A stretch of 60,827 nucleotides of DNA, filler included, from Basidioascus undulatus (Eukaryota): the NCBI GenBank assembly GCA_000826855.1. It is 7 parts of 7 records of this genome, joined end to end, with 100 filler letters (N's around TTAATTAATTAA, not from the genome) between each part and the next. Parts side by side here need not be neighbours in the genome. Positions count along the whole stretch, not along the records: positions 11,513 to 37,886 come from JTLS01000190.1; 6 more parts are not named here. One strand, written 5' to 3'. The notes under the pieces were generated by a model, which saw only the letters and a list, made by a program, of their open reading frames with translations, had not been told where the DNA came from and did not search any database. The number at the start of each line of letters is the position of its first letter. The first letter of the stretch is position 1. Below are positions 21,502 to 46,956 of this stretch, one piece after another. The translations under genes were made by a program, and so were the position numbers.

Positions 21502-22928
21502 CTATGCGCGCGCTGCGCGCTCAGAAGCAATGAATTCGCGCATATACTTCGCGAGGGTCTCCGCTTGGGGAACGGAGATGCCGTTGTAGAGGGAAGCGCG
21601 GATGCCTGTGAGAAGACACAACGAAAATAGACATCAGCTGTGTTGCTAGGGAATGCGTAAGGAAAAAGGAGACGGACCGCCGACAGAGCTATGTGGGGGA
21701 GCAAAAACGGTTAGGAAAAGGAAGACCAGGGAGAGCGGGTTCTGAAAGAGCGCACCGGTGGCCCTTGAGCGCCTTGAGTCCCCGCGTCTCGGCGCCCTCC
21801 AAGAAGCGCTTCTCCGCGCCGTCGCCCTTGATGATCCAGACGACGTTCATCCTGCTCCTCGCGTCCTTCTGCACCTTGCCCTCGAACACGCCCTCGCGCT
21901 CGCCCTCCTCCACCGCCTCGTACACGATCCTGCTCTTCTCCTTCGCGGCGCGCTCTGCCTCCGCCACGCCGCCGCGGCGCTCCAGCTCCTCAAACACGAG
22001 CCCGCTGACGTAGATGGCAAACATCGGTGGGGTGTTGTACATGCTCTCGTTGTCCGCGTGGCGCTTGTAGTCCGCCATGTGCGGGACGACGGGGATCCCG
22101 CCGAGCGCGAACGCGTCGTCCGTCGAGACGAGCAGGTCCTTCCGCGCGATGACGAGCGTGAGGCCCGCGATGCCGGCGTTCTTCTGCGCGCCGGCGACGA
22201 TGAGCGCGTGGCGCGAGACGTCGATCGGGCGCGAAAGGACGTTCGAGGACACGTCCGCGACGAGGTTCTTGGAGTTTGCGGGGAGCGCGGCGTACGGGAA
22301 GGACGGCTTGAACTCGACGCCGTTGACGGTCTCGTTGTCGCAGTAGTACACGAATGCGGCGTCGTCCGTGAGCTTCCACTCGCTCGTAGGCGGGATCGCG
22401 CCGAACGTCTTGCCGTCTGCGCTGGCGGCGCGCGCGTCCACGGCGACGTTCACCTTGGCGATCGAGCCAGCCGTCAGGCGCTTCGCCTCCGATGCGGCCT
22501 TGGCGGACCAGGAGCCGGTGACGACGTAGTCGAGCGTGGCGGACTGGGCGGTCGGGTTCGCGAGGCGCCAGGCGGAGAGGACATTCAGCAAGACGGCGGA
22601 GAACTGGCCCATGCCGCCGCCCTGCATGAGGAGGACCTCGTGCGTGTCCGGGATGGACAGCAGCCGGCGGTAGGCATCGACAACCTTTGAAGCGGAACGA
22701 AAAGGATCAGCATGAACATGGGAGACGGCAATGGCGGAGTTCGAGTTGGGGCAGAGACGCACGTTCTTGGTGAGCTGAATGAACGCAGGGGAACGGTGCG
22801 AGAGTTCAGCGAGGCCGATACCTGTGTTGTTGTAGTTGAGCAGGCCCGCAGCAGCGGTTTCCAGCACGGAGGTGGGCAGGGTGGAGGGGCCCGCGGCGAA
22901 GTTGATCACGTCCTGGCGGTCGGGCATC
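21502..22928 (-). CDS. SER1: Phosphoserine aminotransferase
   Basis: VINFAAGPS, ELSHRS, QGGGMGQF, VTGSWS, CDNETVNGVEF, GAQKNAG (PLP lysine), YNTPP, GHRSVGGIRASLYN. Includes an 11-nt micro-exon at 21678-21688. Confidence 0.97.
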
Positions 22929-24218
22929 GTGGAGGGGAGACGGCGGGGAAAATGTAGGGGCTGTTGATAGAGGAAGGGAAAAGGTGAGAATTGAGGGGCC
23001 ATGATAGAGTATGAGGTATGATGTTGTGGGATTGTTGAGCAAATGGGAGATAGGAATCGGAAGTTGAGCGAGGAGAGATGGGAGGGCAGAGCGTTGCCCC
23101 CACTCGCAATTTATGCTGCACGATCGACTCGTACGACTTCTCTCCGAGGCGCTCATATCCACAGATGAATCGGGTACGCACGTGAAAGGGACGAAAAGGA
23201 AAAGAGCGTGTATCCGGGAGACGGTTACAGAGGAACGCCCGCAGGAGGAGGAAGGCTGTGAAGCGAGAAGACCGCCGCCAGGATCGAGTCAGTCCTCCTC
23301 GCTGGCCACCGCATTGCCCAAGAATGGCGTGATTGCCTAGAGGAGTTGTGCGCATGCAATCAAAATAATGACTCACCGCAGAAGATCTGATCGCAAGCGT
23401 ACGAATCGGAAGGAGTTCCAAGAGGAGGAAGGCCAAGCGGCGCTGACTCCCACGGTCTTCTCGCGATGGCGGAATCCCCAGATTCTGGCCGGGTTCGTCC
23501 GCGGGCGGATATCGGCGTCCGCCGTCCGGGCCTCCATCCGGAGTGATCTCCTGGCTTGCACCCGACCCTCATCCTCGCATTCCGCTCACTCTTTCTGCAC
23601 TGACAATCGTTCATCTCCTCATATTTTCTCATTCGAAAGTCCATCGTTCACTCTAGAGCAGGTCGCTCTCCGTTTCGATCGAGTCTATTCGTTCGTTCCG
23701 TACTCCCCGGGGCCCGAAGCTAGTCGCGAGGTGGGTCAGCACTCGCTGTCGTAGGCAAGGGGTACAGGGGAGAGCCAGGAGGAAGAGAAGGCGGGAGATT
23801 GTAAGGTGGACACCTGCGCCCAGGAGCAACCGGTTGCAGTGGCAGGGTGGCTTCCTGGTCCTCGGCAGACACCCACGCCGGGGCGAGAGCTGGTGGACGC
23901 AGACCTTGCTGCGGTTGCGCGGCTTTTCCACGCAGAGCGCGCCATGCTGGACAGCAGAGCGATGTTATCCCGGACATACCTACACCGTATAATTCAGCGG
24001 TTCGGGACCTCCCATGGCGAGAAGTAGTTGGCTCGTGGTGATGAGGCTCTCCAGAGTGATCGCGTTGTTCACGCACCGCAGTCATGCCCTGGCCCACCAC
24101 GACTTGTCGGAAGGACGCTTTCTGACCAATGAATACTTCGCTGAACAGCAGCGGATCACCTCGCAGCTATCCCTACCGCTTTGCCCCTCTCCATCACCGG
24201 CCGCCCCTCCGCGACACC

Positions 24219-26206
24219 ATGATCTCCGCTGTCTTCTGCTTCAACCAAAAGGGCGAGGTCCTCATCTCGCGATTATTCCGCCCAGACGTGAAGTGCGTTA
24301 CCTCCTCTTGCCCCTCTCCCGGCGTCCACCACGTATTGACCCATTCCCCTTCTCCTTCAGGCGCTCCATCTCCGACGTCTTCCGCATCCAAGTCGTCTCG
24401 AACCCCGACGTCCGCTCGCCAATCATCACCCTCGGCTCGACGTCCTTCTTCCACGTGCGGCATAACAACATCTACGTCGTGGCTGTAACGAAGTCCGTCT
24501 TCCCACCCCATCCTCGCTTCCGCTTGGTGGCCTGGAGCACTGACAGCGCGCAAACGCAGGTGCAATGCCTCCGCTGCGCTCGTCTTCGAGTTCATCTACC
24601 GCGTGATCACCATCGGCCGCGCGTACTTTGGGAAGTTCGACGAGGAGGCGGTCAAAAACAACTTTGCGCTCATCTATGAGCTGCTGGATGGTGCGTTTCG
24701 AAGCCCCGCGCACGCGTCAGACCTCATTCCCAGGATGCAGGAAGGCTAAACTGGGGGACTCCTGTGAAAACAGAGATCCTCGACTTCGGGTACCCTCAAA
24801 ACTCCGAGATCGACGCACTTAAGATGTACATCACGACCGAGGGTGTGCGATCCGAAGCGTCGATGGTGCGTCCCGCAACATTTTCTCAGGTTATGTCCAA
24901 GTGACCTGGAAGGCCGACGCCTCCAACGCGACAGTTGGAAGACTCGAGCAAGATCACGATCCAAGCGACGGGCGCGACGTCGTGGCGGCGGAGCGACGTC
25001 AAGTACCGCAAGAACGAGGCGTTCGTGGATGTCATCGAGAGTGTCAACCTGCTCATGTCCGCGAAGGGTGCGTCTGGTTGTCTTCGATGAGCATAAGCAA
25101 GAGTTAATGTGGGTCTGACTTGATGGATGGACCGGGACACGCAGGCAACGTCCTCCGTGCCGACGTCGACGGGCAGATCCTCATGCGTGCATACCTGTCC
25201 GGCACGCCCGAGTGCAAGTTTGGGCTTAACGACAAGCTTGTGTTGGAGAAAAGGTGCGTACAGCCCACATCAGACTCGCAGCGGCATGCGGACGTATGGT
25301 TTCTCGGCGTACACGCAACTGATGCTGAGTGCGTTCATGTCTTAGCAGCGACCGCTCAAGATCGGTTGATGACGCGGTCGAGCTCGACGACTGCCAGTTC
25401 CACCAATGTGTACGGCTCGGCAAGTTCGACTCGGATCGGACGATCAGCTTCATTCCTCCCGATGGCGAGTTCGAGCTGATGCGGTCCGTGCCTCTTTCCT
25501 CGACCCTCTTTCAATTCCACTCCCGTCCTCCCTCACCCCTCATTCCATGAGTCCGCACTCACCCAACTTGTTCTTGCTGTTGCGGTGGCATTAGGTACCG
25601 CTCCACGACGAACGTGAACCTCCCGTTCCGGGTCCAGCCGATCGTCAACGAAGTCGGCAAGTCGCGCGTGGAGTACACCGTCCACGTCAAGGCCAACTTT
25701 GACCCCAAGCTAAACGCCAACTCTGTCGTACTCCGCATCCCGACGCCGCTCAACACGACCGGCGTTAAGTGCACCGTCACAATGGGCAAGGCGAAATACG
25801 TGCCGGCGGAGAACGAGATCGTTTGGAAGTGCGTGTTTTTTCTCCCGCTCTTTCTGCTGGTTTACCTCTGGATACTGACGGCGAGGAATGGGAACGCTGC
25901 AGGATCCCGAGAATGCAGGGCATGGCCGAAGCAACGCTGCAAGCGGACGCGGACCTGACGGCGACGACGCACCGCCAAGCATGGTCCCGCCCGCCGATCA
26001 ATGTCGACTTCCAGGTCCTCATGTTCACTGCGTCGGGGCTGCTCGTGCGCTTCCTCAAGGTCTTTGAGAAGAGCAACTACCAGGTGCGTTGCGCGAGCGC
26101 TCTGCTTCCGGAGGACAGTCGTGTTAATGAAGGCGGGCGGGAGCAGAGCGTCAAGTGGGTACGGTACTTGACAAAGTCCACGGGGAGCTATCAGATTCGG
26201 TTCTAG
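24219..26206 (+). CDS. APM4: AP-2 adaptor complex medium (mu2) subunit
   Basis: [92 protein letters not shown]. Confidence 0.96.
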
Positions 26207-26467
26207 TGATCACTTGGGATCTGGTGCGTTCTTCACTGTGCAGCACCTCTTTCTTGTCGCAGCCGAGCTTACTCTTTCCGCAACGTGTTTGTCCTACGCA
26301 GCGGCTTGGTTACTTTTCATTCTCAGCATGCTGATTGTATTGCCGTCAATGCATTGATACCCTCTTTCGCTTTGCGGCGGCATGACAGCGGCGTAATGGT
26401 GGTAATGGTGGCCGCTCGCCGCAGCTAGCTTGCAGCCGCTGGAAAGGCTGCCTGCATTTTCTTGGAG

Positions 26468-26544
26468 AGATTCCGGTGCGATCTTCAGGTTGATTGTTAA
26501 ACGTACAGATTTCAGTGTAAATTCAGGTTAATTGTTACACGTAC
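26468..26544 (+). repeat. Imperfect tandem duplication of 39/38-bp units
   Basis: AGATTCCGGTGCGATCTTCAGGTTGATTGTTAAACGTAC followed by AGATTTCAGTGTAAATTCAGGTTAATTGTTACACGTAC. Confidence 0.75.
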
Positions 26545-26646
26545 TGGGGGATCCTTGGAGTCTGAATGTCGACAGCTCTACAGAAATCTTCAAAGACGGA
26601 CGACTCAAAGCCGAGCGGAAGAGAAGGGCAGCACACGGAAGATTAG

Positions 26647-27445
26647 AAAACTTGTGCATTGGTGACCCAACCACTTCAAATTGCTGCAACTATGGACGGG
26701 CTGTCAACTAGGATGTGATGGATTGAGTTGAAGGAAGATGCTTGCTCAGCGGAGTCTTCTACTTGTGCACACCGCAAGCAGACTGATGATTTGAGGGGCA
26801 TTATTCCTGAGCTTAGGTTGCATGTTTCATCTTATCGTCGACCTCTTATATTAACCAGAACGAACGCAATAGCACAGAAGAGCGAGGACAGGAAGATGCA
26901 TTGTGGTAACTGCGGGACCGGAGACAATGATTTATGGCCCGAGCGTCATGCAACATGGTAGGACCATCCAATCTTAACTGTACAGACAAAATCGACCAAA
27001 AAATAAATTAAATGTATCACGTGCTTGCGCTGGTAGGCCAAGGCATCGACGGCTGGTTCTTGTTTGCAGCGGCTTGCGTAGTTACTTGAGATCTCTTCTC
27101 GCTTCTGCGGCAGCGTTATAGTCATTACAAAGTTGATCCGTTAGGACTGGTGTATATTTGAGCAACCCTAAGATTCTGCATTACTGCACTCGAGGAATCA
27201 TCCCAGACAGGCAGGCAACGACCAATGCCTTTTACGTTCAAGCGACAACGCCTAGAATCGCAAGCAGGCAACACTTGGGCAGAAGTGACCCATTGCACTC
27301 CTAGTCACCACAATCATGCATGGGCTATCAACCAGGATTGCTGGTTCTGAAATGAGCTGAAAGAAGACGCTGCCTTTGCCCGAGACGGACTGACACTTTG
27401 TACACCTCGCCTGCAAGCTGGAGGTCTGAGGGGCATTATTGCTGT
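26647..27445 (+). repeat. Diverged direct repeat pair (~26647-26810 and ~27270-27445), decayed coding-like
   Basis: Colinear blocks GTGACCCA, GGGCT(G/A)TCAAC(T/C)AGGAT, TGAG(T/C)TGAA(G/A)GAAGA(T/C)GCT and TGAGGGGCATTATT. Both copies read ELKEDA...LRGII with nearby stops. Confidence 0.65.
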
Positions 27446-27688
27446 GATTTAATGATATGATATAGTTCTTGTTCATTTGCACATTCCGGGCGAGCGCAGT
27501 GAGATTCAGTGAGAAGGGGCACGGAGAGGAAGACGCTGTGCAATTCAACCGTGCAACGCACAGCGGAAATGTGCAGATGTTGTCTAACGGTCTGAGCATC
27601 TGCCATCGTGTAATAGTCGTGTACTATGTTTCCAGATTAGTGCTACAGTCAAAACAGTGAAAGCAGCCCCCAAATGAGATTAACAAGC

Positions 27689-27693
27689 AAAAA
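27689..27693 (-). terminator. RNA polymerase III terminator (T5) of the permuted tRNA gene
   Basis: TTTTT on the minus strand, 5 nt after position 37 of the downstream 5' half. Confidence 0.75.
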
Positions 27694-27698
27694 GGTAG

Positions 27699-27782
27699 TA
27701 CGAGTGGCGCGCTCTACCACTGAGCTAAACGGGCATTATTCCTATATGCCCATTGGCCGGATTGAACGACCGACCTCACCAT
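27699..27782 (-). tRNA. Circularly permuted tRNA-Thr(CGU): 3' half (nt 38-73) at 27782-27747, 12-nt spacer at 27746-27735, 5' half (nt 1-37) at 27734-27699
   Basis: Minus strand reads ATGGTGAGGTCGGTCGTTCAATCCGGCCAATGGGCA-tataggaataat-GCCCGTTTAGCTCAGTGGTAGAGCGCGCCACTCGTA. Reordered it forms a complete 72-nt cloverleaf: acceptor GCCCGTT/AATGGGC, D GCTC/GAGC, anticodon CGCCA/TGGTG with loop CT-CGT-AA, T GGTCG/CGGCC. Confidence 0.9.
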
Positions 27783-28509
27783 TTCAATACCATTAGGGCA
27801 TCAAATCACTACGATTTATGTAGGCTAGAATCAAATTGTTCCAATATCCAATAACCGACTCTGCTTAAAGCACCTGGCCGGCTATAGAAGGTACCATGAG
27901 TGGAGGGTTCAGAGATTATGTGGCAGTTTGATTCGAAACAGCCGTAGCGCAAAGGAAGAAGGTGTGGGTGCTTGGGCGTAGGCTGCAAGCTGCACCGCAG
28001 GAGCCTCGCTGGGCTGTCCAGATGCCTGACAAGCAGGTAGCGAACAACTCTATCAAGGGAGAAAGGAGAAGGGGACAAATGTGGGTAAAATCGTGGTAGA
28101 TACACCAGCCCTGAAACCAGAACAGTGGCTGACACAACTGACAGCGGGAGTAGGTGAAGTAGCAGTGCATAAAATGTGGAACAAAATTCGGGAATGGACT
28201 GCATGAAATGAGGCAGCTTGTCAGAGATTAGACTGCATGGCATGGGTAGAAGAAGAAAAAAAGAGAAGAAGAGGTCGTGAGGTTGAGAGAAGGCAGCCTT
28301 GGTGGATGGAACCACGCAGAGAGGATAGCAAGTGGAGTACACTGATTGTGCACACCACTGAGGGGGGGGCGAAAACATGAGGAGAAATATTCATAGGACT
28401 GAAAGCTTAGATTGAGACGGCACAGCAATGCTCAGTAATCCAGGAAGATGATTGGGGTCTTTGCGCAGATAGGTGAAACCGAAAGGCGTCTGCACCAGCT
28501 TTTACTGAC

Positions 28510-29550
28510 TCAGTTATCTTCTTCAAGCCCGATACGACCCGGATCCCACTGCGTGGTCTCACAAAAGCCATCTCAGACATCTCGCCGACGCGACCGTCTT
28601 CCTCATCTGCACCGTATTCAAACAGCGCCTCGTCGAGCACGGCGCGGACCCGGACGTCGCGACATTGGCCACGGATGCTCTTCGGGCAGCTCGAAATTCC
28701 GTGAGGACCGTGATGCTCGCGCCCGCGTACACCGCCAGCATCACGTTCTCGGGATACGCGACCCGCGTCGATCTCAGCTTTGCCTGCTTATTCCAGCTCA
28801 AGCTCGCCACCGTCTACCCCGACAAGGCTGACGTATACGGCATCCTGAAGGACGTGGATCAGATCGCCAACATTCTCTTGCACTGCGCGGGCTCGCAGAC
28901 ATTTTCGGCGACGTTGAGGTGCGCTCAGTTCCATATTACCTTCTCCCACTTCACACGCGGTCGCACTTTCCAAACGCCCTTATCATTGACAGACTCGCGC
29001 GCGACCACTCCCTCAAGCGCATTTCCAGCACGGTCGGTTCGACTAGCCGCACGAATGTCCCGGCGCCGATGCTGGTGCCCCACCTACTCTCGCTCCACGC
29101 ACACGATGCGGGAAACGCGCTGCTCCCCGGCGAGATTGGCTTCGACTGGCCTCCGCTTCTGCAGGCCGTTCCTGACTGGTTCGAGCTTATGACCCTTGGA
29201 TGGGCAGGGGCTCGTGTCTGCCGGATGCGGAGGTGTTCCAGCAGGTCAGCCGCTCCGCTCCGTTGTGCGACGTTTCGGTATCCATGTAGCATTTGCGTGT
29301 CATGAACCCTGGGCTGCGTTTGCCTCCGACTGAAGTTCGAGCGCGGCCTACAAGAAGCTATGTCTGTACTTGTAAGCAGTGAAGAGCAAGGGATACCCTC
29401 GCAGCGTAGTCGTAACGACAAGGGATGCTTGTGGAGCTGGTTCTGGAGAATGGCTGTGTGCAAAATGGTAACGTGAGTGCCCCCGAACCGTAGCTGGCCC
29501 ATCGAGGAGCGAAAATTGCATACTGAGATGGATATCCCTATCGTTTGAGC
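28510..29550 (+). CDS. Hypothetical spliced protein or relic
   Basis: Coding-like frame YLLQARYDPDP...LATVYPDKADVYGILKDVDQIANILL, a GTGCGC..AG intron at ~28919-28991, then LARDHSLKRISST...; no family recognised. Confidence 0.3.
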
Positions 29551-30064
29551 GAAGCTAAGGCACCAGCTATCCGGGTGAGAGCAAGTTTAGCAACAACTTC
29601 TTATTTTCGAAATAAGCTGTGTCCGTCTCACATGGTGAGTGCAAGGGACTTCGCCGAGTATGACACTGGGAAAGGAGCCAGCACCGCGAACGATGGTAGG
29701 CTCCAAAGCCCACCGACACTAGAAGGAAAAAGCTCGGTTATGGCAAAACCTTTCAGATGGTTTCGGACAGACAAGACCGACGCACTTGGCAGAGTCCCAC
29801 TGCCAACAGATCCGAGGGTCTGTGAGCTTTCTCGACGGCGACGGAAGGCAGTCTTCGGCTTACTTGAATCATTGTCGCTAAGCCGGTTCAAGTAGCACCA
29901 AGATCCAGGCTGTGTAGTTCTGTGGTACGTATCTTCCCACATGGTACCACCATCGCTGAGTTAAGCTCAGCTACCGAAATGGGACAGCGTCGAGCTCATG
30001 ATACGCACTTCGAGAAGATCTTGACACTGAAGCCAAACACGACTCCTGTAATTGTCACTGCAGT

Positions 30065-45328: not shown

Positions 45329-46956
45329 TCAAGCATGGTAGTCCCCCTTCGGCCCACCCCGCCGCTCCCACACCGCCTCAATGTCCATATCCGCCCGCCC
45401 ATCCGTCCTATACACAATCTCCGGCTCCCCGCCCTCCTTCTCCGGATCATAGAAGACGATGTTGTTCGTCAGTCCGAGGGTGAGGTGGATCGCCCCGGGG
45501 CCGGGCTGGTACTTCCGTAACTCCAGTTCCTCCTCCCCCTTACCCACACCCGCCTTGATGAGCGCAAGAATATTGTCCTTGACGATCTCGGTCTGCACGA
45601 TGGCCGGGCGCGCGGCTTTGGGCCCGCCCGAGTCGGCGACGTCCCCGACTGCGAAGATGTGCGGCAGGGAGGGGTCGGAGACTTGGAGGGTTGGCTCGAC
45701 GCGAACAAAGTTGTTTGAGGAGTTGATCAGGGCGGGCGGGAGGAAGGCGGTGTTAGGCATCTGGCCGGTTGCGACGATCTGAGGTCGTCCAAAGAACAGA
45801 ACGTGAGAAGGAGTCCGCTAGTGAGGAGGAAGAACAAGGGAAGGAAGGAACGCACCACCAAGTCCCCCTTCAGCGTCTTCCCATTCTCCAACTCCACCGT
45901 CACCTCTCCCCCATCTGTGGGCCAGCCCTCGCTCGGCACCTTTGCGCGGCTCCCGAGCTCGAGGTGGACTCCCAGCTTGGAGAGGTAGGGGACGACGACG
46001 TCGTGGATGCGCGGGTCGAAGCGCGGGAGGAGGTTCGCGCGCGAGTGCACGAGCGTCACGGACTTGGAGGGGTAGAGGTCGGCGATGTCGGTGGCCATCT
46101 CTGTGGGGGTGAAATCCGGTTAGTACGTGGGTGGGCTGGGGTGCGGAAGGGAGAGGAAGAGGGGAAAGAACGGACGTACGGACGCCGACGGCCCCGCCGC
46201 CGAGGATGATGATCCTCTGTGCGTCCTTGACCTTCTCTTGGTCTTCCCACCCCGCATTCTCTTGTCAGCCTCTCCTCTCTGCTGCACGCAGCACCGACAT
46301 GCACGTTGCCTAAAGTACTCCACCCCCTCGACCTTCCCCTCCGTATGGAGCGTCCCCGGCGGGGGGAGGACCGTCCCCGTCGCAAGAACGAGGTACTCGA
46401 ACGGCACCTCCGTGCTTCCGTCCGGGAGCGGGCGGTCGAGGATGAGCGCGTGCGGCTGGGCGGCGGTCGCGCGCGCGCGGACCACTTCGCCCGCGGCGGG
46501 AGGGGAGGAGGCGAAGAGGCCTGAGTACTGCGATGGAGAGCCCGGGGTGAGGGTGTGGAAGAGAAAAGGGAGGGGGGCAGGAGATGAGGTACGGGAATGA
46601 ACGCTTTGTGCTCGTGCCCTGGGAGGACGGCGAAGCGCGGGAAGGCAAAGACGTGCTGGAAGTGCGAGTTCTTCTCTCTGCATTTGCGGGGCCAACGTCA
46701 GACGGCGTAAGCCTAGTTCAAGGAAGCAGGGAGGGCGAGGGGGAGGGAGACGCACACGAGCACGACCTTGTGCGACTCGGGCAGGTCGGCAGCGAGGATC
46801 TTTGCGAGGTTGTAGCCGACGTACGACCCGCCGAGGACGACGACGTTCTGGTCCGCCCAACCTCCCCCTAGCCTCAGCCCCGCACGCTCCCTCCCTCTCC
46901 TTTCCCATCAGCCACAGCCAACGCACCTTGCTACGCGCACCAGAAGCAGCAGACAT
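45329..46956 (-). CDS. AIF/AMID (FSP1-like) FAD/NAD(P)H oxidoreductase
   Basis: NVVVLGGSYVG, FEYLVLATGT, IIILGGGAVG, VTLVHSR, ATGQMPNT, IFAVGDVAD (Pyr_redox_2 motifs). Confidence 0.88.

Follow-up and report, generated by a model that had tools for sequence, protein, structure and literature searches.

A gene for tRNA-Thr(CGU) lies in circularly permuted order on the minus strand of a stretch of DNA from the basidiomycete Basidioascus undulatus (assembly GCA_000826855.1), its 3' half preceding its 5' half. The stretch, here called the window, comprises 60,827 nt of joined genomic parts, and the gene falls in the part taken from JTLS01000190.1; positions count along the whole joined stretch, and the parts of the gene were taken by coordinate from its minus strand. 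The layout of the gene, the cloverleaf of its joined halves, its terminator, the exclusion of a strict bulge-helix-bulge (BHB) motif and a family of compensated paralogs are established. We think it somewhat probable that this basidiomycete has a multi-copy family of circularly permuted tRNA-Thr(CGU) genes, to which the locus belongs and whose transcripts would be processed along the pathway proposed below.

The halves of the tRNA are permuted around a 37/38 junction

When the two halves are joined, ARAGORN reads the resulting 72 nt as tRNA-Thr(CGU) with all four stems intact: a 7-bp acceptor stem, a D arm, an anticodon arm and a T arm, together with a variable loop of 5 nt. The universal residues are all present, G53, T54 T55 C56, A58 and C61 being carried by the 3' half and U8, A14, G18 G19, A21 and U33 by the 5' half, and G15 stands opposite C48. 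Rejoining therefore restores the canonical cloverleaf with its conserved residues, as in a permuted gene. The order of the halves, 3' then 5' on one strand with a 12-nt spacer between them, is that by which circularly permuted tRNA genes are defined (Soma 2007). The junction falls at the canonical position of eukaryotic introns, with A37 at 27699 and A38 at 27782; C32, at 27704, stands at -6 from the 5' junction and G27785 at -3 from the 3' junction. Two further marks of permuted genes, a TATA-like element upstream and a T-stretch downstream, are recognised here by sequence only. The upstream 68 nt, which hold the TATA-like ATAAAT, have a GC content of 34%, as against about 58% for the window. 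On re-reading the window, all letters and coordinates of an earlier description of this locus (the initial annotation) proved correct, and the circular permutation with a 37/38 junction that it had proposed is borne out by the coordinates and by the cloverleaf of the joined halves.

In the unrearranged DNA of the window, neither ARAGORN nor Rfam finds a tRNA (0 calls). With lax filters applied to 171 nt, the best Rfam match was YrlA at 19.4 bits, and tRNA reached 11.6 bits. The Y RNA-like tRNA mimic YrlA (RF02553) was rejected, its score standing against a gathering threshold of 69; the resemblance reflects only the common order of T arm, acceptor stem and D arm. In this match (27691-27794, minus strand) the leader motif TGGTA is paired with TACTA over the 5' cut site, and this second register, TGGTA:TACTA, has a probability of about 0.24 in the folding ensemble. 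A doubled-window ARAGORN scan for further permuted or intron-bearing tRNAs in the window returned this gene alone, plus one match, a 'permuted tRNA-Arg(gcg)' at 46281-46410, which is a false positive because its drawing shows mismatched stems and an oversized variable arm. A split tRNA with separately transcribed halves was also rejected: the 12 nt between the halves contain no T-run, and a spacer of that length leaves no space for a terminator and a second promoter.

Further copies keep the permuted order and a paired acceptor stem

Contigs of two DNA runs (X1 and X2) of the same organism were aligned on 25700-29700 at a likeness of at least 80%. What follows on paralogs holds among the contigs listed in this alignment, the short ones of which are collapsed repeats. 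The region of the tRNA (27576-27843) is a repeat. Over the gene, summed contig depth climbs to 92.7-132.2 in X1, against 16.3 outside it, and to 388.8-540.4 in X2, against 46, or 5.7-8.1 and 8.5-11.7 times that of the flanks, respectively; this corresponds to several to about a dozen copy-equivalents (about 6-12 copies) at a likeness of at least 80%.

At least three further versions hold the permuted order within one contig. In a 10.8-kb contig present in X1 and X2 and aligned at 27699-27783, C4>U and G5>C are accompanied by G69>A and U68>G, so that pairs 4:69 and 5:68 are kept; the spacer of this copy is 10 nt long, with substitutions and indels relative to that of the window. In a 12.4-kb contig (29.0 kb in X2), aligned at 27698-27735, U6>C is matched by G67 in the upstream loose end, and pair 6:67 is kept; the same loose end comprises the T-loop, the 3' strand of the acceptor stem, A73 and a 12-nt spacer of unrelated sequence. 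Another distinct 12-nt spacer is carried by a repeat contig of 88 nt in X1 (27699-27785; depth 45.6, about 2.8 copies). Altogether, the acceptor-stem pairs of the two long-contig copies are compensated in three cases out of three, and the four readable spacers, that of the window and those of three paralogs, are 10-12 nt long and mutually unrelated in sequence. A mature part that is conserved or compensated beside spacers that vary freely is the signature expected of a selected gene family, and the family probably consists of working genes.

In every readable downstream flank, a T-run of at least four begins no more than 12 nt after A37 (Table 1). The readable flanks are that of the window, three loose ends of single contigs, the consensus of two further contigs and one copy that resembles the window's. 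The trailers diverge from +1 or +2 in some copies, and because of these differing trailers TACC cannot be the universal partner of the leader. At the other end, G stands at -3 in four of the five leader contexts (three of the four besides the window), and beyond -3/-4 the sequence is unshared. A 3' site that is constrained beside a 5' site that varies freely appears to fit eukaryote-style recognition by a ruler plus an anticodon-intron (A-I) pair, the recurrence of G-3 together with divergent trailers being the pattern that this mechanism predicts. No listed contig shows both flanks of one copy, by which a trailer could be matched to its own leader. Likewise, none of them joins A37 directly to A38; that is, no conventional Thr(CGU) copy was seen at a likeness of at least 80%.

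In a third, cDNA-like run, X3, the gene is uncovered except by one 263-nt contig, which has 227 nt of unrelated sequence before the 3' half. Read-through transcription of another copy, carried-over DNA or a chimeric joining could each account for this contig. Elsewhere, an X3 contig omits 74 nt with GT..AG ends (25828-25903) in the gene for an adaptor-complex medium subunit; because of this spliced intron, run X3, which is labelled 'DNA?', is RNA-derived.

Table 1. Parts of the permuted tRNA-Thr(CGU) gene, and the downstream flanks and leader contexts of its copies
Feature	Position	Strand	Description
TATA-like ATAAAT	27814..27819	-	32-37 nt 5' of A38; candidate upstream promoter element of RNA polymerase III (Pol III)
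Leader GGTATTGAA	27783..27791	-	GGTA at 27791-27788, G-3 at 27785, A-2/A-1 at 27784-27783; 3' part of the 'open intron'
3' half, A38-A73, 36 nt	27747..27782	-	contains B-box-like GTTCAATCC
Intervening spacer TATAGGAATAAT, 12 nt	27735..27746	-	closes the acceptor stem; RNase P and RNase Z presumably excise it
5' half, G1-A37, 36 nt	27699..27734	-	A-box-like TAGCTCAGTGG; anticodon CGT at 27702-27700
Trailer CTACC	27694..27698	-	5' part of the 'open intron'; TACC complementary to leader GGTA
T5 run	27689..27693	-	Pol III terminator-like
Downstream flank, window copy			CTACC, then T5
Downstream flank, second context			CTACC, other letters, T4, then T8
Downstream flank, consensus of two contigs			C, GGTGG, T9; agreement only 0.7
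Downstream flank, fourth context			TC, then T5
Downstream flank, fifth context			near-window sequence through 27682
Leader context, window			G at -3
Leader context, 10.8-kb copy			ends GCGCA: G at -3, C at -2
Leader context, 88-nt X1 contig			G at -3, the alignment reaching 27785
Leader context, 40-nt X2 contig			G at -3, the alignment reaching 27785; depth 302 (about 6.6 copies)
Leader context, 263-nt X3 contig			A at -3

A proposed processing pathway

We propose that Pol III would make a single short transcript consisting of a leader of about 6-10 nt, the 3' half, the 12-nt spacer, the 5' half, the 5-nt trailer and a U-run. The halves would fold together into a normal cloverleaf, with the spacer capping the acceptor stem and with leader and trailer projecting from the anticodon loop at the canonical 37/38 intron site, like an intron whose far end is open. 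The ordinary heterotetrameric splicing endonuclease (SEN, or TSEN) would dock on the mature body and cut past A37 by distance, as a ruler, and its cut before A38 would be aided by a pair between C32 and leader G-3. A Trl1-type tRNA ligase would then join A37 to A38. RNase P and RNase Z would excise the spacer, either after joining, through a circular intermediate like that of algae, or before it, through a two-piece intermediate, and CCA addition would come last. In budding yeast, nuclear end trimming takes place before cytoplasmic splicing; a yeast-like order with trimming first would leave two paired pieces instead of a circle. The enzymes SEN2/34/15/54, Trl1 and Tpt1 are expected in fungi generally.

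In the parts of the literature drawn on here, the A-I pair is given as the sole conserved intron feature for the eukaryal TSEN and as needed for 3' cleavage, with the body read by a ruler (PMC10485636, PMC8479045), and it is formed by a pyrimidine at -6 of the 5' site with a purine at -3 of the 3' site (PMC8479045). Excerpts of a 2014 review state that a circular intermediate has been demonstrated in algae and that the location of the enzymes should decide in which order the steps of processing occur (PMC3978253).

A stronger version of this proposal seems to us possible rather than probable: all tRNA-Thr(CGU) genes here (about 6-12 loci) would be permuted, with no conventional copy, and ordinary SEN, guided only by the body and C32:G-3 and by no BHB or intron helix, would together with a Trl1-type ligase yield a working tRNA, maybe by way of a two-piece intermediate if trimming comes first.

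Leader and trailer in the folded precursor

In the initial annotation, a strict archaeal BHB had been held to be impossible, and this was confirmed. The cut sites set the BHB register as 32:-3, 33:-4, 34:-5 and 35:-6, in which C32:G-3 pairs and U33/U-4, C34/U-5 and G35/A-6 are unpaired. The strict archaeal form (hBHBh', 3-4-3, with cuts after the second bulge base) is excluded because only C32:G-3 can pair in the cut-site register, leaving one of four pairs in the central helix.

Leader GGTA (27791-27788) and trailer TACC (27697-27694) are Watson-Crick complementary, as had been claimed. The minimum-energy fold of the precursor is the permuted cloverleaf (-34.9 kcal/mol, z = -2.25), with A-1 and A38 opposite C32, and GGUA:UACC has a probability of about 0.75 in the free-RNA ensemble, provided that the transcript starts at 27791. 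Folding of the predicted transcript thus returns the cloverleaf and this helix, but C32:G-3 is absent from the favoured fold. The sequence requirements of the A-I pair are present, with the pyrimidine C32 at -6 of the 5' site and the purine G-3 at the 3' site.

We compared the helix with chance in 40000 trials. Random genomic leaders set against the 5-nt trailer formed a Watson-Crick helix of at least 4 bp in 4.5% (9 nt), 8.8% (15 nt) and 12.6% (20 nt) of cases. G stood at -3 in 28% of random leaders, and G-3 jointly with a helix of at least 4 bp occurred in 1.2%, a figure for a 9-nt leader that was picked post hoc. The folding-energy gain of the real flanks, -4.3 kcal/mol, was matched by 36% of 2000 random flank pairs. 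By these comparisons with random flanks, the GGTA/TACC helix lies within chance (4-13%) and is therefore unestablished from this copy alone. The complementarity itself stands, but pairing of this kind arises at these rates in random flanks and cannot be the same sequence in copies with other trailers. The GGUA:UACC helix may stabilise the open intron of this copy; it is probably not required for processing.

The leader TGGTA (27792-27788) is also a repeat of TGGTA in the D-loop (27719-27715). As a result, the trailer CTACC is also perfectly complementary, over 5 bp, to G18-G22 (GGTAG, 27718-27714), and the leader motif may have been left over from an older 5' half.

Transcript start and origin of the permuted gene

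In fission yeast, a Pol III TATA element lies about 30 nt 5' of the start. If ATAAAT is such an element with that spacing, it would set the start at about 27790-27786, inside or just past GGTA, and the GGTA/TACC helix may thus sit at or beyond the transcript start.

The initial annotation had the gene probably arise within an ancestral 37/38 intron, for which the 10.8-kb copy gives no evidence. In a hand alignment, the 30 letters before A38 in that copy match the stretch from G1 to about A31 of the 5' half with a local score of 10 (scoring +1/-1/-2/-0.5); of 20000 random genomic 31-mers, about 0.8% score as high. A paralog leader that resembles a decayed 5' half would favour tandem duplication with decay of the outer halves, and says nothing on an intron. 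For the window copy, local alignment of the flanks with the lost outer halves gave no significant remnant (shuffle p 0.55-0.95; random genomic p 0.29-0.99). In the excerpts of the 2014 review, the standard model derives permuted genes from a tandem duplication whose outer halves are then lost (PMC3978253). Where two intron-less Thr(CGU) genes stand in tandem, G35 of the upstream copy would land exactly at -3, where it can pair with C32, so that an A-I-like pair would be obtained for free.

Alternative readings

Several observations weigh against a family of permuted genes processed by ordinary SEN. The initial annotation had C32 pair with G27785 as an A-I pair beside an AAA bulge; its base identities are right, but the pair has an ensemble probability of 0.003. 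Folding favours A-2:U33, G-3:C34 (0.72) and U-4:G35 instead, and forcing C32:G-3 with the AAA bulge costs +3.1 kcal/mol relative to this shifted register. Permutation puts the B box upstream of the A box. This order is not known to suit fungal TFIIIC, so that transcription would depend on the candidate TATA-like element. In neither DNA run is 27724-27752 spanned by a window-identical contig, the long contigs ending at 27723 and resuming at 27753, and it is therefore the window assembly alone that links this leader to this trailer; the gap is likely due to repeat simplification in the contig graph. The 263-nt contig of X3 (depth 3.8, aligned at 27747-27782) carries a window-identical 3' half ending at A73 and has A at -3. 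The details of the paralogs all come from one alignment listing, in which mismatches near contig ends are masked and the anticodons and the -1/-2 letters of short repeat contigs are uncertain. Metagenome scans for relatives found 0 loci with the pattern of a 3' end, spacer and 5' start and 0 loci with that of a 5' half and a nearby T-run.

The shifted register is the core of a different mechanism, in which leader and trailer form a relaxed BHB (HBh'-like) that would itself be what is recognised, as at Cyanidioschyzon junctions, and the helix would be essential and co-vary between copies. We regard this as unlikely. The structure would consist of U33:A-2, C34:G-3 and G35:U-4, a bulge U36-A37-C+1 holding the 5' cut, and the 4-bp GGUA:UACC. 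It is both the minimum-energy and the centroid fold, with pair probabilities of 0.57-0.75, and CTACC is apparently common to several copies. Canonical geometry is reached at one site in each register. In the shifted one it is the 5' site, in the U36-A37-C+1 bulge, which has the exact geometry of a BHB bulge, the cut following two unpaired bases; the 3' site is displaced by one, with a single unpaired base before the cut and C32 opposite, and the central helix has 3 bp and not 4. In the register of the initial annotation it is the 3' site, A-2, A-1 and A38 forming a 3-nt bulge solely there. Relaxed hBH, HBh' and 'no H' forms do occur at real permuted junctions in the excerpts of PMC3978253. However, the helix lies within the chance range given above, other copies have the trailers TC+T5 and C+GGTGG+T9, the C at -2 in the readable leader of the 10.8-kb copy breaks U33:A-2, and the spacing of the TATA-like element would imply a start at about 27790-27786.

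That the locus is a dead relic of two tandem tRNA-Thr genes that have lost their outer halves, with no tRNA made and a meaningless leader-trailer pairing, is very improbable. Both halves are flawless, the truncation falls exactly at 37/38 with a terminator 5 nt on, ACG is a heavily used codon, and several copies retain the layout with compensatory stem changes and free spacers, with no conventional copy among the contigs listed. In favour of a relic are the standard route of origin, tandem duplication with outer-half loss (PMC3978253, in excerpts), and the one paralog leader that looks like a decayed 5' half (score 10, about 0.8% of random 31-mers). At least as improbable is an assembly chimera, in which leader and trailer of different permuted copies were joined through their common tRNA sequence; the pairing would then be an artefact and the permuted genes would still be real. 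The gene is repeated in about 6-12 copies, each of the two independent contig sets is interrupted at 27723 and 27753, and no window-identical piece spans 27724-27752, as such a chimera would have it. Yet simplification of the repeat graph suffices for the gap, 98% of the sampled words are present, and the acceptor stem pairs properly across it (C4:G69, G5-U68, U6:A67), where a chimera of differing copies would often break it.

Relation to known permuted tRNA genes

Permuted tRNA genes are usually tied to unusual, BHB-reading splicing enzymes and to TATA-driven transcription by Pol III. Those of Cyanidioschyzon merolae were reportedly described by Soma et al. in 2007, and the type II genes of algae and a nucleomorph are said to go back to Maruyama et al. 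in 2010. The excerpts of the 2014 review count 34 permuted genes, from six algae and one archaeon, with intervening sequences of 1-74 bp (PMC3978253). In the same excerpts and in those of a 2026 review, the only hosts given for such genes are a few unicellular algae, one nucleomorph and a few archaea, and among eukaryotes the 2026 review names only unicellular algae. A full-text literature search (fungi, Basidiomycota, Wallemia-type names, yeast splicing endonuclease) found no permuted tRNA gene in any fungus. The novelty is a permuted tRNA gene in an unexpected lineage, a fungus; the kind itself is known. For green algae, the 2014 review has already proposed that type II (37/38) junctions with relaxed motifs suit the ordinary eukaryal endonuclease (PMC3978253), and because that review already holds the idea, the mechanism of the initial annotation is not new in kind.

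One of the nearest known counterparts is the permuted tRNA-Thr(CGU) gene of C. merolae, a type II gene that, in these excerpts, has the same identity, the same 37/38 junction, a TATA-like element and a T-stretch, with an intervening sequence of 31 bp as against 12 here (PMC3978253). The route proposed there, a circular intermediate followed by RNase P, RNase Z and CCA addition, is thinkable here as well (PMC3978253, in excerpts). In C. merolae the junctions are described as BHB motifs, the endonuclease handles many positions, and recognisable TFIIIC A/B-box binders are lacking; the origin of the present gene is very likely independent of the C. merolae gene. The type II genes of green algae (Ostreococcus, Micromonas) and of the Bigelowiella nucleomorph also have the 3' half first and a 37/38 junction in the anticodon loop, together with a relaxed rather than strict BHB such as may form here, and the spacers of the listed Ostreococcus lucimarinus genes are 12-26 bp long, compared with 12 here (PMC3978253, in excerpts). 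The present gene differs from the algal type II genes in its basidiomycete host, its Thr(CGU) identity, its several copies and its central helix with 1/4 pairs, and it is known from its DNA sequence alone.

With canonical SEN/TSEN introns at 37/38, the junction shares its position, a pyrimidine at 32, a purine at -3, a possible 3-nt bulge (A-2, A-1, A38) and a variable flank at the 5' site. In contrast to such introns, the 'intron' here consists of two free transcript ends and its A-I pair is unfavoured by folding; cutting would free two end pieces, and ligation would close a circle rather than join two exons. The permuted and split tRNAs of archaea (Thermofilum pendens, Nanoarchaeum equitans) likewise have base-paired halves that are cut and joined by splicing enzymes, but they use a BHB at 59/60 or separate transcripts, whereas the present gene has no strict BHB.

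Genomic setting and meaning of the finding

The DNA of the window is eukaryotic and nuclear, and it carries split genes, among them those for an adaptor medium subunit, MIS13, ATP12, COX6B, SUI1 and a mitochondrial carrier. An intact, intron-less open reading frame for phosphoserine aminotransferase (SerC) occupies 21689-23002 on the minus strand; its best named match is from Wallemia ichthyophaga, at 60% identity, followed by matches of about 49% across Basidiomycota. By these matches the host belongs to the basidiomycetes and is no more than a distant relative of any species named among them. ACG is the commonest Thr codon of this neighbouring frame (10/20), and several copies of a Thr(CGU) gene are therefore plausible.

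If the stronger version of the proposal is true, this would be the first family of permuted tRNA genes in fungi or in any opisthokont, and a natural proof that the eukaryal enzyme splices an 'open' intron. Standard tRNA finders would then miss the tRNA for a whole codon in such genomes, as they do in this window. The copies, being a ready-made mutational series because their leaders and trailers differ, would provide a natural substrate set for the long-standing question of how little intron the eukaryal endonuclease needs. The permuted layout could, in that case, arise and persist with standard opisthokont machinery.

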